From: Acidimicrobiia bacterium
GTDB lineage: Bacteria; Actinomycetota; Acidimicrobiia; Spongiisociales; ZC4RG35
Assembly (NCBI GenBank): GCA_965214265.1
Contig: CBDCBK010000007.1
Span: 439-64,438 of the forward strand
Direction: 5' to 3'
DNA: 64,000 nucleotides
Below are positions 1 through 32,571 of the stretch, piece after piece; the first letter of the stretch is position 1, and every line of letters begins with the position of its first letter. A program made the position numbers and the translations under genes. The notes beneath the pieces are model-generated. The model saw only the letters and a program-made list of their open reading frames with translations. It searched no databases and had not been told where the DNA came from.

Positions 1-3000
1 CTTTTCCGAACCGGTGACGGGCTTCAGCGCCAGCGACATCGAGACGGGTCAGGATCCTGCCTGCGTGGACGATCAGAACAACACGGTCTTCTGCGACCCG
101 GGGATTGGGGCCTTGCAGACGACCGACGACCGGGTCTTCACCACCACGGTGACCCCGAGGACCGACCGTGTGGCCCACAGCTACACGTTGACGATGACGG
201 TTCCGGGAGGCGCCGTGAGGTCATCAGTGGGAAGCAAGTCGAGCGAGGAGCCTGAGGAGCCGCTGGAGGTCCGGGTGGCGCCGCCGGGAGTGGAGGAGCC
301 GATTTCGTCTCTGGGTCTAACGGCCAGCGGTGGGAACGGAACAGTCAGGCTGAGCTGGAACCGGCCAACGGATAACGGAGGCTCAGCCATCATCCGCTAC
401 GAGGTTCGGTATCAAGCGGTGGGAGAGACGTGGAGCGAGTGGGAGAAGGTGGGAGCGGGGACGCGTGGGGTGACGGTGGAGAACCTGATCAACGGCCGGG
501 AATACATCTTCGAGGTGCGTGCGGTCAATGCGTTGGGGAAGGGTGGAGCTGAAACGGTGCAGGCCACCCCGGAGCGGCGGATTGCGCCTCCGCCCCCGCC
601 CCGCGGAGGTGGGGGCGGCGGTGGTGGCCTGCTGTTTCCACCGGAGGCGCCGCTGGGGCTGATGGCGATGCCCGGGGACGGAGCGGTGCGGCTGGAGTGG
701 AGCCCGCCCGAGAGCGACGGGGGCACCCCGATCCTGCGCTATGAGTACCGTTTGAAGGAGGGGCGGGGAGCGTTCGGGGAGTGGACCGCCATCGAAGACA
801 GCGCCCCCGGTGAGGTCAACGCCACCGGGTATACGGTGGGTGAGCTTGGCAACGGGACGGTCTATGTCTTTGAGCTGCGAGCGGTCAACCTGGTGGGCGG
901 GGGGCCGGAATCGGAGGCGGTGGAGGCGGTGATGGGGCTGGATCGGGCCTATTGGTCGAACTTCGGTGCGGAGGATCTCCAAGGGGGTGAGGCCAGTCTG
1001 GAGGGAGGGCCGTTTGGGGAAACCCCGCAGAGTCTGAGGCTGCGGTTTGGAGCGGGGCTGCGGTTTGAGGAGAGCAAGCTGGACGGAGACGGGGAGGTGA
1101 CCGGGACCCGGTCGGGGAGCTACGGGTACCGCTACACCAGCCGGACGACGGGGGAGTTGAGGTTGGACTACGACGGGGGAGAGTCCTGTGAGCTGCGGTT
1201 GACCTTCAGGGGAGTGGGAGCGGGCAGCTACAGCTATCATCGCTGCGGCGGGGTGTTGGGGGGACAGGGGAGCTTCGAGTTGACGGGGCTGAACCGGGGG
1301 CCGGAGATTACCAGCGCAGGGGCGTATGAGGTAGCGGAGAACACGGTGCGGGTAGGACGGCTGGAGGCGGTGGACGGGGACGATGAGATCGGGGGATACG
1401 GGATAGCGGGGGGAGCGGACGGGGGGCTGTTTGAGGTGGTTGAGGAGACGGGGGAGTTGATGTTCCGGGAGGCACCGGACTACGAGATTCCGGGAGATGT
1501 GGAGAGCGAGGAACCTCAAAGCAGAGCAGCAGACAACGAATACATTGTAGTGGTAGAGGTGAGCAGCGGTGAGGGGGAGAGGGAGCGGAGGGAGAGCCGT
1601 GCGATCCGTGTGCGGGTGGCTGACGAGGAGGAGCCGCCGGAGATCACCAGCCTGGGCCCGTTTGAGGTGGTGGAGAACCGGACGAGGGTGGGGCAACTGG
1701 AGGCAGTAGACCAGGACAAGCAGGACGAGATTACGGAGTACGGGATAGCGGGGGGAGCGGACGGAGCACTGTTTGCGGTGGAAGCGGAGACGGGGGAGCT
1801 GAGGTTCCGGGAGGCGCCGGACTACGAGACTCCGGGGGATGTAGCCAGTGAGGATCCCCAGAGCGGAGCAGGGGACAACGAATACATCGTGGTGGTAGAG
1901 GTGAGGAGCGGTGAGGGAGAGAGGGAGCGGAAGGGTAGGCGTGTGATCCGGGTGCGGGTGAGTGACGAGGAGGAACCGCCGGGGGCGCCGGGGGCACCGG
2001 CGGTGACGGCGGAGGGCAGCGACAGTTTGAAGGCAAGCTGGAGAGAGCCGGAGAACCGAGGGCCTGAGATCGTGGACTATGAGGTGCGCTACCGGGAGGC
2101 AGGCGAGGCAGGTTACAGCGATGGGGGACACGAGGGGACGGGTTTGGAGGTGAGGCTGTCGGGGCTCGAGGAGGGGACGGCCTACCAGGTGCAGGTGAGG
2201 GCGGTCAACCAGGAGGGGATCAGTGAATGGTCGGAGCCGGGGGAAGGGCGGACGGACACGGAGGAACCGGACCCGGACCCGGACGATCCATCGGACTTCA
2301 CCGAGGAAGAGCTTGAGGGCAGGCGGCTGACCCTGCGGCTGGAGGGTGAGGAGGGGACTGCCGGAAGCCTTGAGCTGCGGTTTGGGGAGAGCAACCGGTT
2401 CGAGCAGACCGAGTCGGGCGGTCAGCAAGCTGCGACCCGGAGCGAGGGCGCCGCCTCCCGATCGGGCGCCTACACCTATGAGAAGACGGGCACTCGCATG
2501 GGGACGGTGAGGCTGGCCTACGATGACGGAAGTTCCTGTGAAGTGTTACTTGCCTTCACCGAGTCGGGAGCAGGCACGTTCAGTTATGACTGCGGCGGGG
2601 GGACCCGGCCGAAGGGAGCTTCCGGCTGACGACGGGGTCGTTGTTCGTTCCGGTGATTCTGTCGGCGGCAGGTCAGAACCAGTCCTTTTTCACCTCGGAA
2701 CTGACGCTGACCAACCGGGGGGACGAGGAGGTAAAGCTGGACTACAGCTACACGGCCCACAGGGGAGGGGGCAGCGGGAAGACTTCTGATGTGCTTGCAC
2801 CCGGCATGCAAAAGATCGAGACCGACGCCCTGGGCTATCTACAGAGCCTGGGGATACCGATTCCCGAAACGGGCAACCGGATCGGGACGCTGAGGGTGGA
2901 GGCGCGGCTGGGGTCCGAGGTAGAGGCGGTGGTGCGGACGACGACGCTGGTGCCTGACGGGAGGGCGGGGCTGGCCTATCTGGGGGTAACGGAGGAGGAG

Positions 3001-4098
3001 GGCTTTACCGAGGCAGTCTACCTGTGCGGGCTGCGGCAGAACAGCCGTGACCGCTCCAACGTGGCCTTCCAGAACATGGGAGCAGAGGAAGAGGGTGCGA
3101 TCACTGTGAGGACGACGGTGTATTCGGGAGAGTCGACAGACACCAATGCCCGGGTGCTTGAGGACGTGACGCTTGAGCCGGGAGAGTTTCACCAGTACTC
3201 GGGGCTGCTGGGAGTGCTGGAGAGCGTGGAGGGCAACCGCCAGGGCTACGTCAAGGTGGAGCGTGTGGAAGGAACCGCTCCCTTCTACGCCTACGGGGTG
3301 ATCAACGACCAGGCCAACTCGGACGGCTCGTTTGTCTTTCCGGTAGCGGCGAGTTGGCTGGAGGGAAGGATGGGGCAGACCCTGCCGGTGATTGTGGAGA
3401 CGAGCGCGTTCACCAGCGAGCTGACGGTGACGAACTTCTCAGGGGAGGCCAGGAGGCTGGATTTCCAGTTTGTGGCCGAGGGAATCGAGGCTGCGGGCAA
3501 CACCGCCGCCTTCAGCATGAGGCTGGAAGCCGGCCGGCAGGAGATCATTGCGGAGGTGGTGGAGGAGCTGCGCCAGCGGGGGGTAGCGGGGCTGGGGTCG
3601 ACACGGGGCTTCTACGCGGGACCCTTGTTCGTGGTGGCGGAAGGCGGAGACATGAGCGGCATCGTGATCGGGGCCAGGACGGGCTCGGAAGGAGGGGGCG
3701 GACAGTACAGCGTCTTCTACAACGCGGTGCCGGAAGGTGCGGCCTTCACCGGGGAGGCCTGGGTGGATGGGTTGCAGCAGGACGAGGAGAACCGCAGCAA
3801 CCTGGCGCTGGTCAACACCGGGGAGGTGGACGGGAGCGCCAGCGTCTTCCATCTGGAGATCTACGACGGCGAGACAGGGTTGCTGGCCGAGACGGTGGTA
3901 ACCAAGCCGATCCCCGTCCGGCGCTGGCATCAGATCAACGGCATTCTGGACAGCTACGCCCCGGAGACCCGGCAGGGGTATATCCGGATCGAGAAGGTGT
4001 CCGGGGAGAACCCCTTCCTGGCCTACGGGGTGGTCAACGACGGCGGGGCTCCGGGAGAGCGCAGCGGCGACGGAGCCTACCTGCCCGCGAGGGAGTAG
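1..4098 (+). pseudogene. Copy A of the giant FN3/cadherin-like surface protein. It is 5'-partial (continues off-window) and its frame is broken once (ORFs 14..2629 and 2641..4098).
   Basis: Positions 1-4098 are colinear with 15338-19415 of the intact copy. Translation shows FN3 ('LSWNRPTDNGGSAIIRYEVRYQ'), cadherin-like units ('PEITS..GIAGGADG..F....TGEL.FREAPDYE') and the C-terminal double module. The frame breaks at the G run 2597-2602, where copy B has one more nt (GAGGGGG). This could be a real pseudogene or an indel error. Confidence 0.8.
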
Positions 4099-4359
4099 GC
4101 GCTCTGCTCGGCACTCAATGCCATTTCCAGACGTTCGATTGGAATGGGAGCTTCATCGATAATCCATCCAGTTTGGGGAAAGCGGAAAATGGACACTGTT
4201 TACCACTTTTCCACAGGCGCTTGGACTAATGAAATCAAGGTATCTGTCGGTCTACAAACCGGACAGATCACCAGTCATAAAAACCGGTCAACTCGACATG
4301 TCATTGAAACCGGTTCAAAGCCGCCGTTGCCTCAAGCCCGGATCAGCAGTTCTTTTTAT

Positions 4360-4774
4360 ATGTCGGTTCACCACTGTCCGGTTAAACTTTCAAGACGTTA
4401 GTGTAACAGGTTTAATTCCATCAGGTTACCAGTGGAAATGAGTGTTTTCGACTTTAACTCGCTCCAAGATTTCGGCCATACTTTCTCCGCTACCCAGAAG
4501 CGCATGGTCTTCTTGACCAACAACTTTACCCTTCCGGCCCTGACTATTGCCCATCTTTACAAGTGCCGCTGGCGTGTGGAGTTGTTCTTCAAATGGATCA
4601 AACAATATCTGCGGATCAAGGCTTTCTTTGGAACCTCCCAGAACGCGGTCAAGACCCAGATCTGGATCGCCATCAGCGTTTACTTACTCGTGGTTATCCT
4701 CAAAAGGGAATTGAAAATCGACCGAAGTTTCGGCGAAATCCTGCAAATTCTCAGCATCACCTTCTTCGGAAAAG
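4360..4774 (+). mobile_element. Left part of an IS4-family derivative: TSD, left TIR and a transposase C-terminal fragment. The right part was lost in a 287-bp deletion.
   Basis: 'ATGTCGGTT' (4360-4368) is followed by the TIR 'CACCACTGTCCGGTTA' (4369-4384). The ORF from 4432 encodes 'LPALTIAHLYKCRWRVELFFKWIKQYLRIKAFFGTSQNAVKTQIWIAISVYLL', a typical IS4/DDE_Tnp_1 C-terminus. Apart from one mismatch it is identical to 19677-20091. Confidence 0.7.
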
Positions 4775-4896
4775 ACAAGCCAGGGCGCGCCCAGCACCGT
4801 CTGTCCCCTGAAGACTCCAAACAAAGCGCCGCAAGATGTCAAAGACAAGCACGTTTCGACCTTATGCTCAGCGACCTGGTGAGAAATGCGGGCTAG
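4775..4896. mobile_element. Truncated MITE: right half with terminal inverted repeat.
   Basis: Matches 20379-20500 of the full MITE. It ends in 'GGTGAGAAATGCGGG' followed by 'CTAG' (4878-4896). Confidence 0.7.
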
Positions 4897-5354
4897 ATAC
4901 GCATCAGAGAGCACCGGGGCCGGTCTTCGCCGCGATCCGATCCTTCGACAAAGAGAATGGACATGATCTCCATCGTGAATGGTAGATTGCGAAGCCTCCA
5001 TCACGTCCTCCGGCCTGCGGCGGGCGCCGAGGGGAATGCGGTTCATCGTGGCGGTCACGGTCGTGCTGCTGTGGTCACTGCTCACGGCCACGGGACAGGG
5101 CGTTGGCCTCTTTTCCGCAGTCGAGCCGGCGGCGCCGAGAAACCGGACGCCAGCAGGCGAGCGTGTCGACGGACCCGGCGCGGGTGGGTGTGGTCGGTCG
5201 ACTTGGCAAACTTCTTGTCGAGTAGAAATTGCTCCAACGTGACTGGCACCCAGTGCGACTTAACACCCTACAGTCGGCGTCGAACACCGGTCTTCCCGCC
5301 AATGAGGCGGAAGTGTCTCGTCTTCCCTACAAAAGCAAAAGCCGACCTTCAACT

Positions 5355-5556
5355 CTAATCCGCATTTCTCACCAGAGTTCACAGATGAGGTCTGAGAGGG
5401 CCTTGGCCTGGTCCAACTCGGGGCGGATGGCGGCTGAAACTGCTCAAGATCGGCGCCCAGATCACCACCTCGGTTGGCCGCATCAAAGTGGCCATGGCTT
5501 CCGGCTGTCCCTACCAGCGGGAGTTCCGTCTGGCCTGGGCTCACCTGCTTCCCTGA
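5355..5556 (+). mobile_element. MITE-type terminal repeat followed by an IS1380-family transposase C-terminal remnant.
   Basis: 'CTAATCCGCATTTCTCACC' sits at 5355-5373. The open frame 5389-5556 reads 'GWRLKLLKIGAQITTSVGRIKVAMASGCPYQREFRLAWAHLLP*'. From memory this resembles the conserved C-terminus of IS1380-family transposases. There is no N-terminal part and no right end. Confidence 0.5.
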
Positions 5557-5882
5557 GACACCACCGAACTGACCGCCCATCCTTGCCCTTGCAACCGGCC
5601 GCTTGAGTAGGGTGGGTCTTATCTGTCCAAGAAATCAGGGGCGGTACATGATGCGCAAAATATGGCGCCCCTATTGGGTCTCAGCAGCTTTACCGGATCG
5701 CTCGAAGTCACCTCCACGGAGCCCATCGCCAGTCTGTCGATCCATTCCGAAGCCGCTCCCGTATTCTCCTCCCTGCCTCCGGGTGAACTGGAAGCTGCCG
5801 CTCCGGTACCCGTGTCTGGACCCTCCTGAAGCGCATTGACGAGGCGGAGGCTGCGTCCTGCCGCTCGGTAGGACGGGGGCCG

Positions 5883-8231
5883 CTAGGCCTCGCCGGGCCG
5901 GGGCATGCGGTAGCCGACCCCGCGCTCGTTGAATATCCAGGTCGGGCGGGCGGCGTCGTCGCCGAGCCTGTTGCGCAGCCGCTTGACGTAGGCGCGCACG
6001 ATCTTGCTGTTGCCGGTGCCGCGTCTGGCCCAGACCTGGCGCAGCAGGGCCTCGTGAGTCAGGACCCGGCCCGCTCCCTGCGCCAGCACACGCAGCAGTT
6101 CGTACTCGGTCGCCGTCAGCGTCACCGGGCGCCCGGCCAGGCTGACCCGGCGCCGGTCGTAGTCGATGGAGAGCTCACCGAGTACGAAGGGGACGGGGTT
6201 CGACCGCCGGCGCAGGGCCGCCCGGATGCGCGCCGTGAGCTCGGTCGGCGAGAACGGCTTGACCACGTAGTCCTCGGCGCCGGCCTCCAGCGCCCGCGCG
6301 ATGGTCTCGTCGCGCCCGTAGCCCGAGATGAAGATGACCGGCAGGTCGGCGAGCTCCGGAACGGTCCGCATCAGCTCGATGCCGTCGGTCCCGGGCAGCA
6401 TCAGGTCGAGCAGGACCAGCCGGGGCTTCTCGGCCCGGATCAAGCGCGACAACTCCTGCGGGTCGCCCGTGACCAGCGGGGCGTAGCCCGCCTCCGCCAG
6501 CGTGTCGCGGAGATGCCGCAGCGTCTCCGGGTCGTCGTCGACCACCAGGATGGGCACCGCTTCCGGTGCTTCGCCCGGCGCGCCGCGGCGGCCCGGGGCG
6601 GGACCGCCGCCGGACTCCTCGGCCACCGGGATCGTGAAGGTGAAGCGCGCGCCGAGGCCGACGCCGCCGCTCTCGGCCCGGATGCGCCCGCCCTGGGCCT
6701 CAACCAGGCCCTTGCAGATGGCGAGTCCCAGCCCGCCTCCGATGCCGCCCTCCCGGTCCCCGGCGGCGGTGTACTTGCGAAACAGCTGGCCGAGATGGTC
6801 CGGCGCGATGCCCCGGCCTTCGTCGGAGACCGCAACCGCCACATGCAGCCCCTCGCGCTCCGCCTCGATCCGGATGGGAGCGGTTTCCGGAGAGTGGCGC
6901 GCGGCGTTGGCGAGCAGGTTGTTGAGCACCTGCACCAGGCGCTGCCGGTCGGCCATGACCCGGGGCAGGCCGGGCGGCAGGTCGATGCGGACGGTGTGCC
7001 GCCCGCCGCCGCTGACGAACGTGCCGCGGGCCTGGTCCACCAGCGCGGCGACCTCCGAGGGCTCGGGCGCGACCGACAGCGTGCCGGCGTCGATGCGCCC
7101 GGCGTCGAGCAGGTCGCCGATCAGGCTGTCCATGCGGTCGGCCTGCTGGTCGATGATGCGGAAGAACTGCGCCACCTCGGCCGGGCCGAAGATACGCGAG
7201 GCGCGGAGCACCGTGGCGGCCGAGCCCTTGATCGAGGTCAGTGGCGCGCGCAGTTCGTGGCTCACCATGCCCAGGAACTCGGCACGCATGCGCTCCAGCT
7301 CCCGAAGCGGCTCCAGGTCCTGCAGGGTGACCACCACTGAGGCGAGCGCTCCGTCAGGGCCGTCCGGGCCGTGGATCGGGGTGGAGTTGATGAGCGTCGT
7401 GACGCTGCGCCCGTCCGGGACCGAGAGCACGATCTCCTCGGCCCGCACCGTCTCGGCGCTGTCCAGCGCCCGCGCCAGCGGCAGCCGGTCGAGCGCGATC
7501 TCGCGCCCGTCCGCGCGCCGGCAGGCGATCGTCTGCAGCAGTTGCTCCGCAGTCTGGCCGGGCAGGCACAGGCCCTGCACGATGCGCCTGGCCTCGCGGT
7601 TGAGCGAGGCCAGGGCGCCGGTCTGCGCATCGAACACCACGACGCCCACCGGCGAGGTCTCGATCAGGGCTTCCAAGCCGGCGCGGGCGCGCTGCTCGGC
7701 GCGGTAGGTGCGCGCGTTGGCGATCGCCGTCGCAGCCTGCGAGGCGAACAGCACCAGGACCTCCTCGTCCTCGTCCGTGAACCCCTCCCCGCCCTCCTTC
7801 TCGACCAGGTAGAAGTTGCCGACATGGACGCCCCGGTGGCGCATCGGCGTGCCCTGGAAGGTCTTCGAGGGCAGACGGTCGGGCGAGAAGCCGAGCGAGC
7901 GGACATAGGCGGGCACGTCGGGGATGCGCAGCGGTCCCGGCAGGTCGCGGAAATACTCGAACAGCCGCGGCCCGTCGGGCCATTCCACCAGCTTGCGGTG
8001 CTCGTCGGCGGTGAAGCCCGAGGTGACGAAGTCCTGGGCGGCGCCGGCCTCGTCGATGGTAGCGATGGCGCCGTAGCGCGCGCCGGTGAGCGCCCGGGCG
8101 CTCTCGACGACCTCATTCAGCACGGTCTCGAGGTCGAGGCTCGCGCTGATGCGCAGGCTCGCCGCGCTCAGCGCGGAGATGCGGGCGCGCAGCGCCGCGT
8201 TCTCGTTCGCCGTCCTGTCTTGATCGGTCAT
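5883..8231 (-). CDS. Cytoplasmic fused two-component protein: GAF-PAS-HisKA-HATPase_c-REC-OmpR/PhoB winged-helix.
   Basis: H-box 'FLGMVSHELRAPLTSI'. ATPase motifs 'NLLANAARHSP', 'DEGRGI', 'GGLGLAICKGLVEAQGG'. Receiver 'ILVVDDDPE...LVLLDLMLPGTDG...KPF'. C-terminal 'TATEYELLRVL....VLTHEALLRQVW......VRAYVKRLRNRL.......GVGYRM'. No TM segment is seen. Confidence 0.9.
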   Translation of the reverse strand: MTDQDRTANENAALRARISALSAASLRISASLDLETVLNEVVESARALTGARYGAIATIDEAGAAQDFVTSGFTADEHRKLVEWPDGPRLFEYFRDLPGPLRIPDVPAYVRSLGFSPDRLPSKTFQGTPMRHRGVHVGNFYLVEKEGGEGFTDEDEEVLVLFASQAATAIANARTYRAEQRARAGLEALIETSPVGVVVFDAQTGALASLNREARRIVQGLCLPGQTAEQLLQTIACRRADGREIALDRLPLARALDSAETVRAEEIVLSVPDGRSVTTLINSTPIHGPDGPDGALASVVVTLQDLEPLRELERMRAEFLGMVSHELRAPLTSIKGSAATVLRASRIFGPAEVAQFFRIIDQQADRMDSLIGDLLDAGRIDAGTLSVAPEPSEVAALVDQARGTFVSGGGRHTVRIDLPPGLPRVMADRQRLVQVLNNLLANAARHSPETAPIRIEAEREGLHVAVAVSDEGRGIAPDHLGQLFRKYTAAGDREGGIGGGLGLAICKGLVEAQGGRIRAESGGVGLGARFTFTIPVAEESGGGPAPGRRGAPGEAPEAVPILVVDDDPETLRHLRDTLAEAGYAPLVTGDPQELSRLIRAEKPRLVLLDLMLPGTDGIELMRTVPELADLPVIFISGYGRDETIARALEAGAEDYVVKPFSPTELTARIRAALRRRSNPVPFVLGELSIDYDRRRVSLAGRPVTLTATEYELLRVLAQGAGRVLTHEALLRQVWARRGTGNSKIVRAYVKRLRNRLGDDAARPTWIFNERGVGYRMPRPGEA

Positions 8232-8327
8232 CCTCTCCCCCTTCCGCCCGCCGCCCGCCGGCGGGTGATTCGGCCCCGGACTGCGGCCGGAGCGGTTCGA
8301 TTCGGTCAGATTCCGTTATATCGCATC

Positions 8328-8381
8328 GTATTCGCGAAGTATTCACGTAACAAACCTAAAAATAACATAACTGTAACATAA
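8328..8381. promoter_or_regulatory. Two pairs of direct repeats with 11-bp phasing in the AT-rich divergent promoter region.
   Basis: GTATTC at 8328 and 8339. TAACATAA at 8363 and 8374. Both pairs are spaced exactly 11 bp apart, within the only AT-rich stretch between the kinase/regulator gene and the giant gene. Confidence 0.4.
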
Positions 8382-9119
8382 TATTCCCTAGTATTACAAG
8401 GGAAGATTGTTTGCGGGACCGGTGGCGGAAGCCGGGCAGGCCGCGTGGATGGCTTCGGGGACCTCGGCGGCCGGAATCGTACGGTCCGGTCCCGGAGCAT
8501 GCCGGGACCTCAGGAGGTGGGAAGGACCGAATTGGATTGTACTTCAGAACCGGGCGTCATCGCTGTCCAAAACCTCGGCAAATACTCGGCCATTGTGCAA
8601 AAGATAAGTACCGGCGGGGGGGCGCGAACGCGTTCACGACCGGCAGGGGGAGGCCTCGTGGACCCTCGACTCCGTGCGGATCGCCATCTTTCGATGGCCG
8701 CCCGGCACGAATCTCGTCGTCAGGATCCACAGCGCGAGCGGCTCCAGTCCGGGCGCCGTGATCGCCACCCTCGCCAACCCCTCCCGCGCCGTCGGCGCGC
8801 TGGCCTTCACCGCCCTCGACAACGTACAGCTTGCCAGCGGCACGACCTACAGGGTGACGTCCGCAACCAGGCGGCACACGCCAGCGGCTCGCCAGGTGTT
8901 GAGCTCCCGCAGCCCGTACGGGAAAACGATTCAGAACACATGGGCAGCGAGATGCAACGGCAAATTCCACGCCCTATCGAAGCCTGGAGAATCAACTCCA
9001 GCCCGGTTCTCCTGGCCTCCTCTCCCACAACTGCAACGGAAGATAGCGTTTCAGCAATTCCTCATTCTCTACCTGGACCTGTACGGGATTGGAGATATGC
9101 TTCGCCCCGCCGGGAGAAT

Positions 9120-18100: not shown

Positions 18101-19415
18101 CGGGACAGCTTCGGAGGTACTGGCTGCAGGCAGGCAGAGGGTGGAGACCGACGCCCTGACCTATTTGAGGGGCTTGGGGGTTCCGATTCCCGAAACGGGC
18201 AACCGGATCGGGACGCTGAGGGTGGAGGCGCGGCTGGGGTCGGAGGTAGAGGCGGTGGTGCGGACGACGACGCTGGTGCCTGACGGGAGGGCGGGGCTGG
18301 CCTACCTGGGGGTGGCGGAGGAGGAGGGCTTTACCGAGGCGGTCTATCTGTGTGGGCTGCGGCAGAACAGCCGGGACCGCTCGAACGTGGCCTTCCAGAA
18401 CATGGGAGCGCCGGAAGCGGGCGAGATCACCCTCAGGACCACGGTGTATTCGGGAGAGGCGGCGGATGGGACTGCACGGGTGCTGGACGACATAGAGCTT
18501 GAGCCGGGAAAGTTTCACCAGTACTCGGGGCTGTTGGGAGTGCTGGGGGTTCCGGCCCAGGGCTACGTCAAGGTGGAGCGGGTGGAGGGGAGAGCGCCTT
18601 TCTACGCCTACGGGGTGATCAACGACCAGGCCAACTCGGACGGGTCGTTTGTGTTTCCGGTGACGGCGGGTTCACTGGAGGGAACAGCGGGCCAGACCCT
18701 GCCGGTGGTGGTGGAGACCAGCGAGTTCAGAAGCGAGCTAACGGTGACGAACTTCTCGGAGGAGCCGAGGAGGCTGGATTTCCAGTTTGTGGCCGAGCAG
18801 ATCGAGGGGGACGACAAGACGGCGAGCTTCAGCATGGAGCTGGAAGCCGGCCAGCAGGAGATCATCCCCGAGGTGGTGGATGAGTTGCGGAGTCAGGGGG
18901 TGGCGGGGCTGGGTAGGGGCAGCCGGGCCTTGGCTGGGGCGGTGTTTGCCACGGCGGTCGAGGGGGACATGAGCGGGATCGTGATCGGGGCCAGGACGGG
19001 CTCTCAAGGAGGGGGCGGACAGTACAGCGTCTTCTACAACGCGGTGCCGGAGGGAGCGGCCTTCACCGGGGAGGCCTGGGTGGATGGGCTGCAGCAGAAC
19101 GAGGAGAACCGCAGCAACCTGGCGCTGGTCAACACCGGGGAGGTGGACGGGAGCGCCAGCGTCTTCCATCTGGAGATCTACGACGGCGAGACAGGGTTGC
19201 TGGCCGAGACGGTGGTGACCAAGCCGATCCCGGCCCGGGGCTGGCATCAGATCAACGGCATTCTGGGCAGCTACGCCCCGGAGACCCGGCAGGGGTATAT
19301 CCGGATCGAGAAGGTGTCCGGGGAGAACCCCTTCCTGGCCTACGGGGTGGTCAACGACGGCGGGGCTCCGGGAGAGCGCAGCGGCGACGGAGCCTACCTG
19401 CCCGCGAGGGAGTAG
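9120..19415 (+). CDS. Copy B (intact) giant secreted multidomain protein: signal peptide, S8 subtilisin-like domain, GLUG repeats, FN3, Ig-like units, cadherin-like units, and a duplicated C-terminal domain.
   Basis: The ORF is open from 8445, but 'MKLPRTAGIMTRAGAGRRWGLLGAVLAIPLLAGPAGAQQ' at 9120 is a clear signal peptide. S8 motifs 'GTAMLEIVHDLAPGA' and 'GSSAAAPHAAAIAALM' lie at ~9650-10900. GLUG-type 'VGGLVG.N.G.I...YATG.VSG' lies at ~11650-12130. The gene runs uninterrupted to the stop at 19413-19415. Confidence 0.9.
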   Translation: MKLPRTAGIMTRAGAGRRWGLLGAVLAIPLLAGPAGAQQASVQAGGELAVKTVRQIEALLAEKAQRTPAQRKVSSQLLSARQDQQYSVARRQAPVEVAADETVMVDILADVTPEVLARIRSLGGTVINSVPKYRGIRARLPLAAVEPLAGLDAVQSIHPADQAVTRKDDTSEGDVAHRANSARTIHGVDGTGIGIGVLSNGVDTLSDRQVSGDLPDWVTVLPRKEGQGSEGTAMLEIVHDLAPGADLYFATASGGGEPLLASNIEALCEAGADVIVDDVYFLREAAFQDGIVAQAVNAAVADGCVVISAGGNGGNKKNGTSGVWEGDYAAGSSLPVNGVSVGVLHDFGGGVVKNRIAQDSPFAYVLQWADPLGASTNDYDLFLVDADDNVLASSTNSQNGRQDPVEIIFSIADNHANDRLLIVKTAGAADRYLRLDANQGRLATSTAGNLFGHSAAASAITVAAVDVRAARRAAGVFNGTESVRRSNSDGPRRIFFEADGMAITPGNFSSTGGRVLQKPDLAAATCVSTSTPGFLRFCGSSAAAPHAAAIAALMLEAAGGPDNVTLADLRTAMTGSALDIEATGVDQDSGAGIVMAPGAVDAVDVPVADRNGAPMVVDGMLPNRTLIGGAGAVTADVANSFSDPENDTLTYTALSNDPDRVAVTRTGSQLRLTPGWPGPAMVAVRATDPSGLSVVGSFSVMVSAGNRDYDLDDDNLIDVGNLAQLDAMRYDLNGDGVLDDASVWRSYYAAGAFAQGAIDMGCPGGCIGYELTADLDFDTDGSGGPDSGDDYWNGGEGWAPIGGAGVQAIGRRLLLENPFSAIFEGNGRTIGNLFIDTDTVVFAGLFGYATSEIRNVGLIDADVTGTVLAAGLAGYNVGEIRASYVTGRVSGVENVGGLVGINVVDGGIRGSYATASVSGDDDVGGLAGDNRGEIIAAYATGRVSGESDVGGLVGNNQSTGEIRAAYATGPVSGDSGVGGLVGTSGGGRVIAGYWDTSTSGRTQSAGGTGRTTALLQSPTGYSGIYGSWNVDLDGDSMTPDPWDFGTSSQYPVLSVDFDGNNSATWQEFGYQLREGPALMTTANETRVNLNWDAVAASHWTPPPVVAYTLYRDDGTAVEALAENTGSRTYADTDFIAGVTYAYQVAAVVAGGEATRNGWLSVRVLDTTAPRLSLVSITSDPGTDGIYAAGDRIVVTAAFDEAVRVTGTPRVKLEVGGEERTADYADGSGTGALVFEYKVAEGESDDDGVSIAADGIDLNRGTITDASDNAAVLTHPAVSPQSGHRVDGVRPVLEDTGGAVVNGSILTLNYDELLDGGSPPPESAFTVRGGDRTRTVSDVGISGSAVILTVDPAVEHGEEGIRVSYRAGSGAILIRDVPGNEAAGLSNEPVTNETPDTTAPTVDSVEISSDPGTDRTYAAGEEIRVTVTFSETVEVTGRPRLMLEVGGGSRTATYGGGSGTAALVFAYEVADGDSDTDGVGVEADSLSGGTIEDTSDNPAELDHDGLAADAGQKVDAVRPELAATDGAVVNGTTLTLTYDEPLDAGSSPSTGDFTVSGGDRARTVAGVRVRGSAVELTLDPGAEHLEAGIRVSYTPGANPIRDVPGNEAESVSQEPVTNETPDTTPPEVSSLAITSNPGGDQIYAAEDEIEVTVRFSETVAVEGTPRLRLRVGSRTRTAGYLRGTDTAALVFGYEVADGDEDTDGVSIEAGRIDRNGGTITDDADNPADLAHEAVAPQAGHKVDGVRPVLVSTAVDGASLTLSYGEALDGGSRPTRGDFTVEVDGSGRSVTGVSISGRVVTLTLNPAVEHGDTGIRVSYTVPTGVGANPIRDEVGNEARGLSSQSVTNTTGAPNTVPEITSPSSISVRENQAVVRRLAARDTDPGDEVTGWEIAGGADQSQFSIASDTGELSFREAPDFEAPGDNEYEVRVEVKSGAGARELEAEQTFTISVTDEREPPDVPEAPTFSGETAESLQVSWSEPDNTGPDITDYDVQYREKGTGRFSGALHEGPGRTLTLSDLNAGTVYEVQVRASNDEGMSDWSNPGEGMTVTPLTVVMASGTEPPVSGPFRVRFSFSEPVTGFSASDIETGQDPACVDDQNNTVFCDPGIGALQTIDDRVFTTTVTPRTDRVAHSYTLTMTVPGGAVRSSVGSKPNEAPEEPLEVRVAPPGAPEPVSSIDLRASSGSGSVRLSWNLPSDSGGSAIIRYEVRYQAVGEAWSEWENVGAGSRGVTVGGLVNGREYVFEVRAVNALGKGGAEAARATPERRIAPPPPPRGGGGGGGGLLFVPEAPLGLMAMPGDGAVRLEWGPPESDGGTPIQRYEYRLKDGREEFGEWTPIADSAPGEVNATGYTVGELDNGTVYVFELRAVNLVGNGRVSEAVEAVMGLDPAYWSNFRAEDLQGGEASLERGPFGGGPQSLRLRFGAGLRFEESELDGEGEVRGTRSGSYGYRYTSRTTGELSLDYDGGESCELRLTFRGEGAGSYSYRCGGVLGGQGSFRMSGLNRAPEITSAGAYEVAENTARVGRVEAVDGDDEIGGYGIAGGADGGLFEVVEETGELMFREAPDYETPGDVASDDPQSGAGDNEYIVVVEVRSGEGERERKGSRAIRVRVADEEEAPEITSLGPFEVVENRTRVGQLEAVDQDKQDEITEYGIAGGADGGLFAVVEETGELMFREAPDYETPGDVASDDPQSGAGDNEYIVVVEVRSGEGERERKGRRAIRVRVADEEEPPAAPGAPVVTAEGSDSLKVSWREPENRGPEIVDYEVRYREGGEEGYSDGGHEGTGLEVRLSGLEEGTVYEVQVRAVNEEGISEWSEPGEGRTDMEEPDPDDPSDFTGEDLEGRRLTLRLEGEEGTAGSLELRFGEGNRFEQIESGGKQAATRSEGVTRSGSYTYEKTGPGRGTVRLDYDDGSSCEIQMSFTETGVGAFAYDCGEGDPGEGSFRLTTGSLFVPVILSSAGQNQSFFTSELTLTNRGEQEVRLDYSYTAERGGGSGTASEVLAAGRQRVETDALTYLRGLGVPIPETGNRIGTLRVEARLGSEVEAVVRTTTLVPDGRAGLAYLGVAEEEGFTEAVYLCGLRQNSRDRSNVAFQNMGAPEAGEITLRTTVYSGEAADGTARVLDDIELEPGKFHQYSGLLGVLGVPAQGYVKVERVEGRAPFYAYGVINDQANSDGSFVFPVTAGSLEGTAGQTLPVVVETSEFRSELTVTNFSEEPRRLDFQFVAEQIEGDDKTASFSMELEAGQQEIIPEVVDELRSQGVAGLGRGSRALAGAVFATAVEGDMSGIVIGARTGSQGGGGQYSVFYNAVPEGAAFTGEAWVDGLQQNEENRSNLALVNTGEVDGSASVFHLEIYDGETGLLAETVVTKPIPARGWHQINGILGSYAPETRQGYIRIEKVSGENPFLAYGVVNDGGAPGERSGDGAYLPARE
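11650..12130 (+). repeat. GLUG-motif repeat block inside copy B.
   Basis: About five successive 'G(E)IR.(S/A)YATG.VSG...VGGL.G' units are visible in translation. Confidence 0.7.
12612..14660 (+). repeat. Three tandem coding units of ~670-700 nt (paired Ig-like domains) inside copy B.
   Basis: Units start at 12612, 13312 and 13980 with 'DTT(A/P)P'. Each contains '..ITSDPG.D.(I/T)YAAG(D/E).I.VT..F.E.V.VTG.PR' followed by 'TL.YDE.LD.GS.P....FTV.GG.R.R.V'. Confidence 0.8.
16632..17310 (+). repeat. Two tandem cadherin-like coding units (~336 nt) inside copy B. The same pair occurs in copies A and C.
   Basis: 'APEITS.G..EV.EN..RVG..EAVD......GYGIAGGADGGLF.VVEETGELMFREAPDYETPGDVASDDPQSGAGDNEYIVVVEVRSGEGERERKG' occurs twice. 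The second halves are nearly identical at DNA level. Confidence 0.8.
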
Positions 19416-19685
19416 GCGCTCTGCTCGGCACTCAATGCCATTTCCAGACGTTCGATTGGAATGGGAGCTTCATCGATAATCCATCCAGTTTGGGGAAAGC
19501 GGAAAATGGACACTGTTTACCACTTTTCCACAGGCGCTTGGACTAATGAAATCAAGGTATCTGTCGGTCTACAAACCGGACAGATCACCAGTCATAAAAA
19601 CCGGTCAACTCGACATGTCATTGAAACCGGTTCAAAGCCGCCGTTGCCTCAAGCCCGGATCAGCAGTTCTTTTTATATGTCGGTT

Positions 19686-20190
19686 CACCACTGTCCGGTT
19701 AAACTTTCAAGACGTTAGTGTAACAGGTTTAATTCCATCAGGTTACCAGTGGAAATGAGTGTTTTCGACTTTAACTCGCTCCAAGATTTCGGCCATACTT
19801 TCTCCGCTACCCAGAAGCGCATGGTCTTCTTGACCAACAACTTTACCCTTCCGGCCCTGACTATTGCCCATCTTTACAAGTGCCGCTGGCGTGTGGAGTT
19901 GTTCTTCAAATGGATCAAACAATATCTGCGGATCAAGGCTTTCTTTGGAACCTCCCAGAACGCGGTCAAGACCCAGATCTGGATCGCCATCAGCGTTTAC
20001 TTACTCGTGGTTATCCTCAAAAGGGAATTGAAAATCGACCGAAGTCTCGGCGAAATCCTGCAAATTCTCAGCATCACCTTCTTCGGAAAAGTCTCTATGG
20101 ATCAAGTACCTAAGAAATTCCATTTGCAACAAGAAGGTTCCGAATCCTGTAAGCAGTTGATATTGTTTGAGTTGTAACCGGACAGTAGTG
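19686..20190 (+). mobile_element. 505-bp internally deleted IS4-family element with both TIRs and a 9-bp target-site duplication.
   Basis: Left TIR 'CACCACTGTCCGGTTA' (19686-19701). Right TIR 'TAACCGGACAGTAGTG' (20175-20190), which pairs with the left TIR at 15 of 16 positions. It is flanked by direct 'ATGTCGGTT' at 19677-19685 and 20191-20199. Only the last ~140 aa of the transposase (19749-20177) remain. Confidence 0.75.
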
Positions 20191-20234
20191 ATGTCGGTTT
20201 AAAAAATTGATAATGTTGTTTCAACTCAAGAGCT

Positions 20235-20500
20235 CTAGCCCGCATTTCTCACCAGGGGGTTGCACTCTTCTCAAGAGTGCAACTTGGCGCAGGATTTTCC
20301 GCTTCAGCGCGTGCTCGTGACCGAAGGGCGTAGCCGGAACACCATTCGAGGGAGCACGTGCGCGCTGAAGCGGAAAAGACAAGCCAGGGCGCGCCCAGCA
20401 CCGTCTGTCCCCTGAAGACTCCAAACAAAGCGCCGCAAGATGTTAAAGACAAGCACGTTTCGACCTTATGCTCAGCGACCTGGTGAGAAATGCGGGCTAG
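20235..20500. mobile_element. MITE (266 bp), full copy.
   Basis: Termini are 'CTAG CCCGCATTTCTCACC' and 'GGTGAGAAATGCGGG CTAG'. There is an internal 11-bp stem 'GTTGCACTCTT ctc AAGAGTGCAAC' and a long imperfect hairpin 'CCGCTTCAGCGCG...CGCGCTGAAGCGG'. No ORF. Confidence 0.8.
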
Positions 20501-20976
20501 ATACGCATCAGAGAGCACCGGGGCCGGTCTTCGCCGCGATCCGATCCTTCGACAAAGAGAATGGACATGATCTCCATCGTGAATGGTAGATTGCGAAGCC
20601 TCCATCACGTCCTCCGGCCTGCGGCGGGCGCCGAGGGGAATGCGGTTCATCGTGGCGGTCACGGTCGTGCTGCTGTGGTCACTGCTCACGGCCACGGGAC
20701 AGGGCGTTGGCCTCTTTTCCGCAGTCGAGCCGGCGGCGCCGAGAAACCGGACGCCAGCAGGCGAGCGTGTCGACGGACCCGGCGCGGGTGGGTGTGGTCG
20801 GTCGACTTGGCAAACTTCTTGTCGAGTAGAAATTGCTCCAACGTGACTGGCACCCAGTGCGACTTAACACCCTACAGTCGGCGTCGAACACCGGTCTTCC
20901 CGCCAATGAGGCGGAAGTGTCTCGTCTTCCCTACAAAAGCAAAAGCCGACCTTCAACTCTAAACCAGGTTTTTCGG

Positions 20977-23900
20977 ATGATTCGTAGTGGGTCGGCCATT
21001 CTATTTGTGTTGAGCATCCTTGTTGCGTCGGTTGGCCCCGGGTTACGGGCGCAGACCTCCGGCGAGGAGACGATCGTCCGTGTCTTCTTCGACGATCTGC
21101 CGACCGGCAGACTCATTGCCGCGAGTTTGGAGCCGATCGAATCCAAGTACGAGAATGGCTACCTGGTGGTGGAGGTCACCGCCGAACAGCTTCAGCGCCT
21201 GCAACAGCGCGGGCTGAGAACGGAACCTGTCAGCGCACAAGAATTGTCGACGATACTTGCCCCACCCCGCGAGATCCGTTCAGCCCAGGCTCCAGAGCAG
21301 GCCACGGCGACGGAAGTGACCGGGATACCTGGTTTCTCATGCTACCGAACCGTCGAGGAGACGTTCGCCGCCGCCGATTCTATGGTTGCGGACAACCCAA
21401 CTTTGGCGAGCTGGGTTGATGTCGGTGATTCGTGGTTGAAGACCGACGCTCAGGGCGGCTATGACATGCGGGTCCTGGTCTTGACGAACCAGAACGTCTC
21501 GGGCACAAAGCCAAAGATGTTCGTCACTTCGTCGATTCACGCCAGAGAATACACGCCGGCGGAGCTGATGACCCGCTTCGCGGAGGACTTGGTCAGCAAA
21601 TACGGTGTCGCTGCCGATGCCACTTGGCTGCTTGACCACCACGAGGTCCACTTGATGCTGCTGGCTAACCCGGACGGCCGCAAACAAGCCGAGGCGGGCC
21701 TGTTGTGGCGCAAGAACGTCAATGAAAACTACTGCGAAGAGGAACCGAACAGTCGAGGCGCGGACCTCAACCGAAACTTCGATTTCATGTGGGACTGCTG
21801 CGATGGTTCGAGTGATGAGCCATGCAGCAATACCTACCACGGCGCTTCTGCGGCTTCGGAACCCGAGGTACTGTCCATCCAGAATTACATTCGGTCGATC
21901 TTTCCCGATCAGCGCGGACCGAATCTCACCGACCCCGCGCCTGATGATGCTACCGGCATCTACCTGGATATCCACAGCACCGGCCAATTGATACTTTACC
22001 CCTATGGGTTCACGGAGACACTGGCCCCCAACAATACACAGCTCCGAACGTTTGCCCGCAAGCTGGCTTTCTTCAATCTGCATACCCCGCAGCAGGCGCT
22101 CGATCTTTACCTCACCGACGGCACGGCAGAGGACTTCGGCTATGGAGGGATGGGCTTGGCGACGTTCACGTACGAGCTCGGCACCAAGTTTTTCGAAGAC
22201 TGCAGCTACTTCGAAGACACGCTGCTTCCGCGCAACATGCCATCGCTCTACTACGCAGCCAAGGTTGCGAGAACTCCCTATATGACGCCCTCGGGCCCCG
22301 ACGTTGTCGATGGCAGCCTCTCGCTGAGCGCGGGAGAATGGCCGTCCGTGGTCGCGGGGGGCACCTCAGTCACGCTCAGAGCCGCCCTGAGCGACAGCCA
22401 GTTCAACAACGACAACGGCGTCGAGCCCACGCAGCCTGTCGTATCCGCGGAGTACTACATCGACACTCCCCCGTGGGTCACGACTCCCGCTCCGGTACCG
22501 TTTACCATGGTGGATGTGGTGGACGCCCCGGGCGATCCGATTGACGGGGATGTTTATGAGGCGTCGATTGACACCACCGGCCTCAATGCCGGCCAGCACA
22601 TCCTTTTCGTGAGGGGGAAGGATTCAGGTCAGAATTGGGGAGCTTTCAGCGCAATCTTTCTGGGAATCGGGATACCGCCGCCACCACCTCCACCACCACC
22701 TCCGCCCCCGCCACCACCTCCGCCACCGCCGCGGGGAGGCGGCGGTGGTGGCCTGCTGTTTCCTCCGCAGGCGCCGCTGGGGCTGATGGCGATGCCCGGG
22801 GAGGGAGCGGTGCAGCTGGAGTGGAGTCCGCCCGAGAGCGACGGGGGCACCCCGATCCTGCGCTATGAGTACCGTTTGAAGGAGGGGAGAGGAGAGTTCG
22901 GCGAGTGGACCCCGATCGCAGACAGCGCTCCCGGCGAGGTCAACGCCTCGGGGTATACGGTCGGGGAGCTGGGAAACGGGACGGTCTATGTCTTTGAGCT
23001 GCGCGCGGTCAACCTGGTGGGCAACGGGCGGGAATCGGAGGCGGTGCAGGTGGTGATGTTGCTGGACCGGGCCTATTGGTCGAACTTCCGGGCGGAGGAT
23101 CTGCAGGGGATCGAGGCCAGTCTGGAGCGGGGGTCGTTTGGGGGAGGACCGCAGAGTCTGAGGCTGCGGTTTGGAGCGGGGCTGCGGTTTGAGGAGAGTG
23201 AGCTGGACGGGGAGGGGGAGGTGAGGGGACCCGGTCGGGGAGCTACGGGTACCGCTACACCAGCCGGACGACGGGGGAGTTGAGTCTGGACTACGACGGG
23301 GGGGAGAGCTGTGAGGTGCGGCTGACCTTCAGGGGAGAGGGAGCGGGCAGCTACAGTTTTCGCTGCGGCGGAAGATTGGGAGGACAGGGGAACTTCCGGA
23401 TGAGCGGGCTGAACCGGGCGCCGGAGATCACCAGAGCAGGGGCGTATGAGGTCGCGGAGAACACGGCGCGGGTAGGACGGATTGAGGCGGTGGACGGGGA
23501 CGATGAGATCGGGGGATACGGGATAGCGGGGGGAGCGGACGGGGCGCTGTTTGCGGTGGAGGCGGAGACGGGGGAGCTGCTGTTCCGGGAGGCGCCGGAC
23601 TACGAGACTCCGGGGGATGTGGAGAGTGACGATCCCCAGAGCGGAGCAGCAGACAACGAATACATCGTGGTGGTAGAGGTGAGGAGCGGAGAGGGGGAGA
23701 GGGAGCGGAAGGGGAGCCGTGCGATCCGGGTGCGGGTGAGTGACGAGGAGGAGTTGCCGGAGATCACCAGCCTGGGCCCGTTTGAGGTCGTGGAGAACCG
23801 GACGAGGGTGGGGCAACTGGAGGCGGTAGACCAGGACAAGCAGGACGAGATTACGGAGTATGGGATAGCCGGAGGAGCGGACGGGGGGCTGTTTGCGGTG

Positions 23901-26210
23901 GAGGAGACGGGGGAGCTGCTGTTCCGGGAGGCGCCGGACTACGAGACTCCGGGGGATGTAGCCAGTGACGACCCCCAGAGCGGAGCGGGGGACAACGAAT
24001 ACATTGTAGTGGTAGAGGTAGGGAGCGGTGAGGGGGAGAGGGAGCGGAAGGGGAGCCGTGCGATCCGGGTGCGGGTGGCTGACGAGGAGGAGCCGCCGGG
24101 GGCGCCGGGGGCGCCGGTGGTGACGGCGGAGGGCAGCGACAGTTTGAAGGTGAGCTGGAGAGAGCCGGAGAACCGAGGGCCTGAGATCGTGGACTATGAG
24201 GTGCGCTACCGGGAGGGTGGCGAGGCAGGTTACAGCGATGGGGGGCACGAGGGGACGGGTCTGGAGGTGAGGCTGTCGGGGCTGAAGGAGGGGACGGCCT
24301 ACCAGGTGCAGGTGAGGGCGGTCAACCAGGAGGGGATCAGTGAATGGTCGGAGCCGGGGGAAGGGAGGACGGACTCGGAGGAACCGGACCCGGACCCGGA
24401 CGATCCGTCGGACTTCACCGGGGAGGACCTGGAGGGCCGGCGGTTGACGTTGCGGAATACGGGTGAGGAGGGAAGCACCGGAAGCCTTGAGCTGCGGTTC
24501 GGCGAGGGCAACCGGTTCGAGCAGATCGAGTCGGTCGGAGAGCAAGCCGCCACCCGGAGCGAGGGGACCTCCCGATCGGGCAGTTACGCCTATCAATGGA
24601 CGGGCCCCCTTATGGGAAGGCTGAGTCTGACCTACGATGACGGGAGTTCCTGTGAAGTGTTATTTACCTTTACCGAGGCAAGAGCGGGCACCTTCGTCTA
24701 TGACTGCGGCAGGGACCCGGGGGAGGGCAGCTTCCGGCTGACGACGGGGTCTGTGTTCGTTCCGGTGATTCTGTCCGCGGCGGGACAGAACCAGTCCTTT
24801 TTCACCTCGGAGTTGACCCTGGCCAACCGGGGAGAGCGGGAGGAGAGGCTCGACTACCTCTACACGGCCCATATCGGTGGGGGCAGCGGGAGGGCCTCGG
24901 AGGTGCTGGCACCCGGCGTGCAGAAGACTGAGACCGACGCCCTGGGCCATTTGAGGGGCTTGGGGATACCGATTCCCGAAACGGGCAACCGGATCGGGAC
25001 GCTGTGGGTGGAGGTGCGTCTGGGGTCTGAGGTAGAGGCGGTGGTGCGGACGACGACGGCGGTGCCTGAGGGAAGGGCGGGGCTGGCCTACCTGGGAGTG
25101 GCGGAGGAAGAGGGCTTTACCGAGGCGGTCTATCTGTGCGGGCTGCGTCAGAACAGCCGGGACCGCTCCAACGTGGCCTTCCAGAACATGGGAGCAGAGG
25201 AAGAGGGTGCGATCACTGTGAGGACGACGGTGTATTCGGGAGAGTCGACAGACACCAATGCCCGAGTCCTGGAAGACGTGACGCTTGAGCCGGGAGAGTT
25301 TCACCAGTACTCGGGGCTGCTGGGAGTGCTGGAGAGCGTGGAGGGCAACCGCCAGGGCTACGTCAAGGTGGAGCGTGTGGAAGGAACCGCTCCCTTCTAC
25401 GCCTACGGGGTGATCAACGACCAGGCCAACTCGGACGGCTCGTTTGTCTTTCCGGTAGCGGCGAGTTGGCTGGAGGGAAGGATGGGGCAGACCCTGCCGG
25501 TGATTGTGGAGACGAGCGCGTTCACCAGCGAGCTGACGGTGACGAACTTCTCAGGGGAGGCCAGGAGGCTGGATTTCCAGTTTGTGGCCGAGGGAATCGA
25601 GGCTGCGGGCAACACCGCCGCCTTCAGCATGAGGCTGGAAGCCGGCCGGCAGGAGATCATTGCGGAGGTGGTGGAGGAGCTGCGCCAGCGGGGGGTAGCG
25701 GGGCTGGGGTCGACACGGGGCTTCTACGCGGGACCCTTGTTCGTGGTGGCGGAAGGCGGAGACATGAGCGGCATCGTGATCGGGGCCAGGACGGGATCGG
25801 AGGGAGGCGGCGGATCCTACAGCGTCTTCTACAACGCGGTGCCGGAGGGAGCGGCCTTCACCGGGGAGGCCTGGGTGGATGGGTTGCAGCAGGACGAGGA
25901 GAACCGCAGCAACCTGGCGCTGGTCAACACCGGGGAGGTGGACGGGAGCGCCAGCGTCTTCCATCTGGAGATCTACGACGGCGAGACAGGGTTGCTGGAG
26001 GAGACCGTCGTCACCAAGCCGATCCCGGCCCGCGGTTGGCATCAGATCAACGGCATTCTGGGCAGCTACGCTCCGGAGACCCGGCAGGGGTATATCCGGA
26101 TCGAGAAGATATCCGGGGAGAACCCCTTCCTGGCCTACGGAGTGGTCAACGACGGCGGCGCCCCGGGAGAGCGCAGCGGCGACGGAGCCTACCTGCCGGC
26201 CCGGGAGTAG
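20977..26210 (+). pseudogene. Copy C: secreted M14 zinc carboxypeptidase head fused to the shared stalk/C-terminal cassette. One frame break (ORFs 20833..23283 and 23280..26210).
   Basis: Signal peptide 'MIRSGSAILFVLSILVASVGPGLRAQ' from the ATG at 20977. M14 motifs 'SSIHAREYT', 'LLANPDGR', 'DLNRNF', 'YLDIHS'. From the Pro/Gly tract (22675-22752) onward it is colinear with copy B. The run GGGG at 23225-23228 is one G shorter than in copy B (GGGGG), which shifts the frame. This may be an indel error. Confidence 0.8.
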
Positions 26211-26237
26211 GGGGCTTACCGATTCAACTTCACGTCA

Positions 26238-28350: not shown

Positions 28351-28351
28351 A

Positions 28352-32568: not shown

Positions 32569-32571
32569 CGC

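Follow-up and report, generated by a model that had tools for sequence, protein, structure and literature searches.

We have analyzed a stretch of 64,000 nucleotides (nt) from contig CBDCBK010000007.1 (hereafter the window, meaning the whole stretch, whose positions are used throughout), which is a piece of bacterial chromosome with a high GC content of about 65%. When the window was compared with itself, a long segment was found three times, and these copies are called here A, B and C. They share a 3.5-kb cassette at the 3' end of much longer genes. A and C are ordinary members of a large family and not special satellites of B, and it is probable that the whole set is a recombining multigene family whose cassettes exchange patches by ordinary ectopic recombination. 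By blastn, A (1-4774) and B (15338-20091) were 90.7% identical, and C (22709-26211) was 91.3% identical to A (585-4099) and 88.7% to B (15924-19416). The genes and their shared parts are the following (aa, amino acids).

1-4098, + strand: copy A, clipped by the window start to the last 4.1 kb (3' end) of a family gene, with the cassette from about 585
9120-19415, + strand: gene B, intact, about 3430 aa, with signal peptide, S8 subtilase head, GLUG and SWM repeats, cadherin and fn3, and then the cassette
15924-19415, + strand: the shared 3.5-kb cassette in B, about 1160 aa, with a Pro/Gly linker at its start
20977-26210, + strand: gene C, with ATG at 20977, signal peptide, M14 carboxypeptidase head, fn3, and the cassette from 22709
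17958-19412 in B, 2641-4095 in A and 24744-26207 in C: the 485-aa C-terminal domain

What C has in common with A and B is only the last 3.5 kb. Its N-terminal half, with a head of the M14 zinc-carboxypeptidase type, is unrelated, and the homology starts only at the Pro/Gly linker, at 22709. Within the cassette the order is fn3, a beta domain of no known type, two cadherin domains, fn3, a second such beta domain and the 485-aa C-terminal domain. The open frame of B extends over 8445-19415, the likely start being the ATG at 9120, and a full-length allele of B (P0121, 3422 aa) was found in another assembly. The 5' end of A falls outside the window and, being clipped in this way, A cannot be judged as to its intactness.

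The first-pass annotation of this DNA had described the identity among the copies as patchy, and a sliding-window comparison bore this out: identity varied from 69% to 100% per 100-nt window, so the divergence is not uniform. A 3181-3683 and C 25293-25795 were identical at 503 of 503 nt, and over the same block B was diverged from A (79% identity). The first 200 nt of A had only 5 mismatches with B 15338-15537, and shortly after, between A 230-370 and B 15567-15707, there were 38 in 141 nt. The identical block of A and C actually extends to 521 nt.

3163-3683, + strand: the 521-nt tract on the A side, identical also to the C ortholog of a sister strain (see below); A is the likely recipient
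25275-25795, + strand: the same tract on the C side

Since the block is also found in the ortholog of C, C was likely the donor and A the recipient. The breakpoint tests support recombination. The longest identical run of A and C (521 nt) compares with a maximum of 166 in 5000 uniform placements; a 3SEQ-type maximum-descent test on triplets gave p<5e-5 for both A|B,C and C|A,B; and the pairwise homoplasy index (PHI) on the C-terminal domain of the paralogs gave z values from -16 to -28 in four genomes. The substrate for such exchange is there, with 20-23 identical runs of at least 30 nt in each pair. When 200-nt windows were painted against all the retrieved copies, the nearest relative of A, B and C switched every few hundred nt.

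A comparison with a nearly identical sister strain provides a view of the same process at the level of whole loci. The metagenome-assembled genome (MAG) OZ253547.1, 'Candidatus (Ca.) Versatilivorator', carries a locus, L001, that is syntenic with window 13330-31416 and has positional orthologs of both B (an intact open reading frame, ORF, of 3212 aa) and C (an intact ORF of 1792 aa). The divergence between the window and L001 was distributed as follows.

B-C intergenic DNA: 0.13%
C head: 0.69%
B stalk: 0.79%
C cassette: 2.17%
B cassette: 5.20%

Within the cassettes the differences were clustered in patches, and these patches match other, dispersed paralogs at 99-100%. The tracts that could be delimited are these.

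15944-16647, + strand: tract of B matching paralog L012 of the sister strain, with 0-2 mismatches per 100 nt versus 9-13 per 100 for the positional ortholog
16775-17014, + strand: tract of B matching paralog L002 of the sister strain
17177-17267, + strand: short tract of B matching copy C of the window
about 23500-24200, + strand: tract of C unlike its ortholog and nearer to paralog L005 and to B of the window

In addition, B 19056-19255 is a short tract nearest to A or C. Both L012 and L002 sit elsewhere in the sister genome, away from the ortholog of B. Patches have therefore been replaced from strain to strain in this mosaic, with donor-like paralogs at hand. When the cassette of B was compared with that of its ortholog, both states were already present among six other paralogs at 144 of the 182 differing sites (79%), and only 25% of the columns are polymorphic in those six, so that point mutation cannot explain the pattern. 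Breakpoint support, synonymous divergence (dS) that goes from 0 to about 0.6, and patches that equal other paralogs in the sister strain give strong support to the earlier suggestion of a patchwork made by recombination or gene conversion between paralogs.

The nucleotide changes themselves carry the mark of purifying selection on the family. The ratio of non-synonymous to synonymous divergence (dN/dS) was about 0.3 in the three pairs A-B, A-C and B-C, and A and C have evolved as coding sequence. Along the gene dS ranged from 0 to 0.63. The most divergent windows had a dN/dS of 0.2-0.5 together with a high dS (0.4-0.6), next to patches with a dS of 0. This indicates that the divergent patches are old, purified sequence imported by recombination and not fast-evolving sites. 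In the dN/dS windows along the cassette we found no hypervariable segments flanked by invariant ones.

The mechanism that we propose would work as follows. Each member would be a giant Sec-exported protein in which an unrelated N-terminal head is joined, at the Pro/Gly linker, to the cassette (about 1160 aa). Many stretches of 30-500 nt are 85-100% identical between cassettes, and this likeness would let the cassettes recombine by ordinary homologous recombination. The mode would be ectopic and mostly non-reciprocal gene conversion, with tracts of about 90-700 nt moving between near and far paralogs, and in the end each copy would be a patchwork drawn from the pool of the whole family. This conversion would also keep the shared module alike within a genome, that is, concerted evolution. 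Such recombination would be of the RecA type and intragenomic, and would act as a by-product or a homogeniser, not as a programmed variation system.

The first-pass annotation had also reported one 1-nt frame break in each of A and C and none in B, which we could confirm.

2597/2598, + strand: frame break of A, one base missing (GGCG-GGGGG versus GGCGAGGGGG in B)
23224, + strand: frame break of C, one G missing (five G in B, four in C)

Both are single-base losses within G-rich runs. We looked for them in the unitigs of public DNA runs. In four of these runs there was a unitig that has the extra G at 23224, and in one of the four it made up all of the depth there. No unitig of the first four DNA runs crossed the break of A or that of C with a 100% match, and the break of A was never crossed in four further runs either (eight public runs in total). 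The break of C was crossed by two unitigs only, with depths of 5 and 12.6 in run X25, the flanking depth being about 80-100. The statement that only the central copy is intact has thus become doubtful: A is clipped, the ortholog of C is intact, and the broken forms are absent or minor in the eight runs. Most likely the frame breaks are private mutations or consensus errors and not a designed silencing of donors, and breaks or mosaics in such genes need checks at the level of the reads before they are read as biology. Phase variation at the G runs was considered and discarded, the tracts being only G4-G6 and the broken forms absent or rare in the reads. A single frame switch in the cassette was also seen in about 4 of about 45 close copies of other complete MAGs (L014, L018, L020 and L040); L020 has besides an insertion of about 1.4 kb.

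These data have to be weighed against other ways in which such a mosaic could arise. It had been proposed that B is an expressed locus with flanking donors, which would amount to programmed antigenic variation of the pilE/pilS or vlsE kind with B as the expression site and A and C as silent, broken donors. Besides the frame breaks, this proposal can count on two short tracts of B, one nearest to C (17177-17267) and the other to either A or C (19056-19255), and on one metatranscriptome run in which the head of B was represented more strongly than that of C. Yet C is a full gene, with its own start, signal peptide and catalytic head and with an intact ortholog; the broken forms hardly appear in the reads; the longest tract (521 nt) joins A and C and not B; and the two long tracts of B match distant, full-length paralogs. 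With a dN/dS of about 0.3, no alternation of hypervariable and invariant segments, and long open frames in most of the 74 loci of the family (see below), we consider antigenic variation of this type highly improbable. The other proposal, that the divergent patches arose by point mutation under diversifying (positive) selection after a recent duplication, has even less room, close to none. The 99.8% identity of the 3' flank does suggest a recent duplication, with a coding identity of only about 91%, but the dN/dS is low overall and stays at 0.2-0.5 in the very patches where dS is 0.4-0.6, while adjacent patches have a dS of 0, and 79% of the differences from the ortholog use states that are present in other paralogs. 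An artefact of assembly, by collapse or chimeric joining of paralogs in the metagenome, deserves attention in a region so repetitive (dozens of paralogs and repeated mobile elements), metagenome-derived, and with a consensus that is imperfect, as the two frame breaks without support in public reads indicate. We nevertheless regard it as very unlikely. The sequence of the block shared by A and C is also found at the C ortholog in the independent assembly OZ253547.1, the mosaic tracts, which match real paralogs at 99-100%, are internal to genes, so that double switches within 100-700 nt would be needed, in an independent run both copies of the flank are borne out by unitigs that span the junctions, and the PHI signal appears in four other genomes.

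The exchange of DNA between symbiont strains or species, with divergent alleles imported by DNA uptake or transfer as the main source of the patches, is unlikely in our view, and several observations do point in its direction. The genes downstream, which are unique and do not belong to the family, also diverge patchily between the two strains, by about 1% and with windows of 25-32 mismatches per 200 nt. The structure of the locus differs between host populations, with a branch at 5358 in runs X1 and X3 that X25 and X32 do not have. Some patches of A are nearest to a paralog of a different species (L024, at 99%). Import alone would still need a transfer from paralog to paralog at some step, because the patches of B equal non-orthologous paralogs of the sister strain; moreover, A and C share 521 identical nt within the window, and paralogs cluster by genome in other species. 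A number of points weigh against ectopic exchange within one genome as we have described it. Together with the patchy divergence of the downstream genes, allelic recombination between strains after DNA uptake could give some of the same patches, and the donor-like paralogs were located in the sister strain, not in the same cell line as the window. Both assemblies are metagenome-assembled genomes, and Logan unitigs (k=31) break at each paralog branch and are too short to tie a tract to a locus, which leaves the mosaics without single-molecule confirmation. With the present data inter-strain recombination is not separable from intragenomic conversion, and the tests run would leave neutral and selected exchange unseparated as well. 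Ectopic recombination among the members of the family is for us still the probable explanation.

The family is much larger than what is seen in the window. Among GTDB species representatives, 156 stretches encode the C-terminal domain, from which 74 distinct loci were kept, mostly in MAGs labelled Ca. Versatilivorator or Versatilivoraceae (Acidobacteriota). Four complete genomes had at least 20, 15, 12 and 11 copies among the retrieved loci, and in public DNA runs the k-mer depth of the cassette was 15-50x that of single-copy sequence. Most of the 74 loci lie at the end of an open frame, whose length goes from 1500 to more than 3300 aa. Widespread truncation, suggested by first protein matches of at most 831 aa, was discarded after ORF tracing in the 74 loci and a search of the representatives, which gave mostly long, intact members. 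The heads are mutually unrelated: S8 protease, M14 carboxypeptidase, Spondin_N with sulfatase, LRR arrays, TIG arrays, Spondin_N with glucose/sorbosone dehydrogenase, and Spondin_N and cadherin with arylsulfotransferase. Under concerted evolution a copy should usually find its nearest C-terminal domain within its own genome, and this was the case for 14 of 20, 11 of 15 and 9 of 11 copies in three other species; OZ253547.1, with 5 of 12, gave a mixed picture.

The 485-aa C-terminal domain is undescribed. It had no match in Pfam, NCBIfam or the sequences of the Protein Data Bank (PDB), and it has more than 1388 close homologues, with 1464 clusters at 50% identity. Its AlphaFold2 model (pLDDT 78.6) is all-beta, with four sandwich units that look like an internal duplication. 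A Foldseek search of the model against the PDB gave only macroglobulin/transglutaminase-type beta-sandwiches of low TM score and a local match to TM1070, from which no function could be assigned. MXAN_2561 was a weak, sub-threshold match (25 bits versus a cut-off of 150) and in the fn3/cadherin part only. In some relatives the domain lies near the N-terminus and is followed by 1300-1850 further residues.

The 3' flank of A and B had been taken as non-coding and more conserved than the coding sequence. Its near-identity was borne out, with 1 mismatch in 668 nt between 4099-4766 and 19416-20083. The label had to be corrected, since the flank is made of an IS4-type transposase remnant, a miniature inverted-repeat transposable element (MITE) and the region upstream of C. 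The identity continues between 4767-5358 and 20371-20962 (1 mismatch in 592 nt), past about 280 nt that are present only in B.

4099-5358, + strand: flank of A duplicated with that of B, with 2 mismatches in 1260 nt and about 280 nt fewer than B, between two CGGAAAAG repeats
19416-20962, + strand: B-C intergenic region; here the IS4-type remnant is longer and reaches to about 20235, the MITE is complete (20238-20497), and the stretch upstream of C follows
4432-4896 (A flank) and 19749-20235 (B flank): IS4-family transposase remnant, C-terminal part of DDE_Tnp_1
5358-5375, + strand: MITE terminal inverted repeat, exactly at the right end of the duplicated segment
20238-20497, 26242-26414 (+ strand, immediately 3' of C), 49932-50174 and 56186-56429: copies of the MITE
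4876-4893, 5358-5375 and 51912-51929: partial copies of the MITE

The MITE-like element is of about 170-260 nt, and its terminal inverted repeat, GCCCGCATTTCTCACCAG, had 11 matches in the window versus 0.06 expected. Its k-mer depth was 100-250x that of single-copy sequence in DNA runs, and it was very high in metatranscriptome unitigs. The IS4-type remnant is longer in the B flank, where the end of the ORF and the end of the element are kept, and the A flank carries the right half of the MITE, with the inverted-repeat end at 4876-4893. The duplicate in the A flank stops at 5358, which corresponds to 20962 in the other copy, 14 nt short of the position of the start codon of C. This anatomy, and a boundary that coincides with the end of a MITE, indicate that the A locus arose by segmental duplication of the 3' part of B together with the adjoining flank. 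The 280-nt deletion and the conversion tracts would have come later. As to the coding part of A, either it has been overwritten in patches since the duplication or its ends were recently converted by B. In run X1, unitigs cross both junctions of the duplicate, at 5358 and at 20962, so these junctions are real. Over window 4869-5459, unitigs of X25 and X32 pass 5358 unbranched and continue only into the A-type junction, and those of X1 and X3 branch there, indicating that the locus is structurally polymorphic between host populations. In some of them the duplicated flank seems to be single-copy, with the A-type junction. An Rfam scan of the whole window gave no match.

Not only patches of the cassette appear to move. 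Between A and B there is a hybrid regulator.

5883-8231, - strand: hybrid regulator, a single polypeptide with GAF, HisKA, HATPase, receiver and OmpR-type DNA-binding domains, divergent from B

Paralogs of this regulator (62-99% identity) adjoin about 10 of the 74 loci of the family, and the k-mers of the regulator gene had 10-60x single-copy depth. The orthology between the window and the sister strain is lost upstream of about 13.3-14.5 kb. On the window side there is a regulator 98% identical to that of L005, followed by the S8 head with GLUG; on the L001 side there is a regulator paralog at 92.7%, followed by a Spondin_N-cadherin-arylsulfotransferase head. The head regions compared were window 8563-14500 and L001 1236-6500, and the switch point falls within the stalk of SWM repeats. 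The finding of unrelated heads and regulators at a locus with the same 3' flank and the same C gene indicates that recombination in the stalk also reassorts heads and regulators. A more speculative idea, for which we would claim only a small chance, is that the cassette is a portable recombination handle that reshuffles the secreted repertoire, so that catalytic or adhesive heads, regulators and patches of the stalk change places between loci within the time that strains take to diverge, and that the C-terminal domain is a new module for surface anchoring or export which all of the repertoire has in common.

As to expression, unitigs covered the unique head of B in four metatranscriptome runs, with a depth of 8-15 in X27, and those over the unique head of C were sporadic and of low depth in the same runs. 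These observations speak weakly for transcription of B, with less of it for C, and carry-over of DNA is possible.

Other features of the window are listed here.

26692-27522 and 27514-28353: element of about 831 nt in two tandem copies (96.7% identity); a related sequence is at 36279-36962 (- strand)
28676-29818 (- strand) and 58851-60104 (+ strand): BNR/sialidase-like genes
31072-35943, - strand: Planctomycete-type pair, PSCyt1/PSCyt2/PSD1 (1123 aa) plus DUF1501 (498 aa)
43799-47452 and 51959-54343: two CarboxypepD_reg outer-membrane barrel proteins

The 831-nt element has no convincing ORF and no Rfam match, and its depth in RNA unitigs was high. It is absent at the orthologous position of L001 and present in L016 and L068.

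There are well known cases of the same kind. The babA, babB and sabA genes of the Hop family in Helicobacter pylori, opa in Neisseria and pmp in Chlamydia are outer-membrane or adhesin families with ectopic gene conversion and concerted evolution, and their members are individually expressed. As in them, we found full-length members with long similar segments, exchange of tracts of tens to hundreds of nt, mosaic alleles and homogenisation within the genome: there are breakpoints among paralogs, the differences from the orthologs come as tracts that match paralogs, and copies tend to be more alike within a genome than between genomes. Here, however, a 3.5-kb C-terminal cassette is mounted on unrelated enzymatic or adhesive heads, the family is larger, the proteins are longer (up to about 3400 aa) and the bearer is an uncultured sponge symbiont; any link to immune evasion would be hypothetical. 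The systems of antigenic variation with silent cassettes (pilE/pilS of Neisseria, vlsE of Borrelia, msp2 of Anaplasma and tprK of Treponema) also show segmental, patchy conversion between clustered paralogs of a surface or secreted protein. The family described here differs from them on four counts: no one locus serves as the expression site, the putative donors are whole genes, the transfers do not converge on a single locus, and positively selected hypervariable segments are absent. We found here neither one promoter-bearing expression locus with promoterless, truncated silent cassettes, nor unidirectional conversion from silent copies into such a locus, nor hypervariable segments under diversifying selection. 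A diversity-generating retroelement was also discarded: the window ORFs that were scanned gave no reverse-transcriptase domain, and the differences span kilobases and use states of the paralogs (the substitution spectrum was not separately tabulated).

Exoproteins with diverse heads and a common C-terminal module are another known situation, as in the C-terminal domains of the type IX secretion system (T9SS), PEP-CTERM, MXYO-CTERM and the dockerin-bearing enzymes of cellulosomes. In these families, as in ours, many unrelated N-terminal modules per genome carry the same C-terminal module. The module found here is different, being 485 aa long, with four beta-sandwiches in the predicted structure, and lacking a hydrophobic anchor at its end, and its role in sorting is putative; no T9SS, PEP-CTERM or MXYO-CTERM model of Pfam or NCBIfam matched it.

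Eukaryotic-like proteins (with fn3, cadherin, LRR and other domains) are known to be enriched in sponge microbiomes (PMC9531527). The habitat and the domain classes (fn3, cadherin, LRR, Calx-beta) are the same as here, but what is reported there is domain enrichment and not a single family with a common recombining cassette and a novel C-terminal domain. In our literature search we found no paper mentioning 'Versatilivorator' and none connecting sponge symbionts with gene conversion between paralogs. What we describe adds a new case to a phenomenon already known, in which a bacterial multigene family evolves in concert and forms mosaics, and it stands out by its modular architecture and scale, by the undescribed C-terminal domain and by the host that carries it. 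The organisation and evolution of the eukaryotic-like repertoires of sponge symbionts are poorly described. In one abundant lineage, whose relatives are labelled Acidobacteriota, a large part of this repertoire is a single family built on a recombining C-terminal cassette, and its members change by exchange of patches faster than the surrounding genome does by mutation. The family offers a concrete case in which the shuffling of modules and concerted evolution can be put to the test in a symbiont that has not been cultured.

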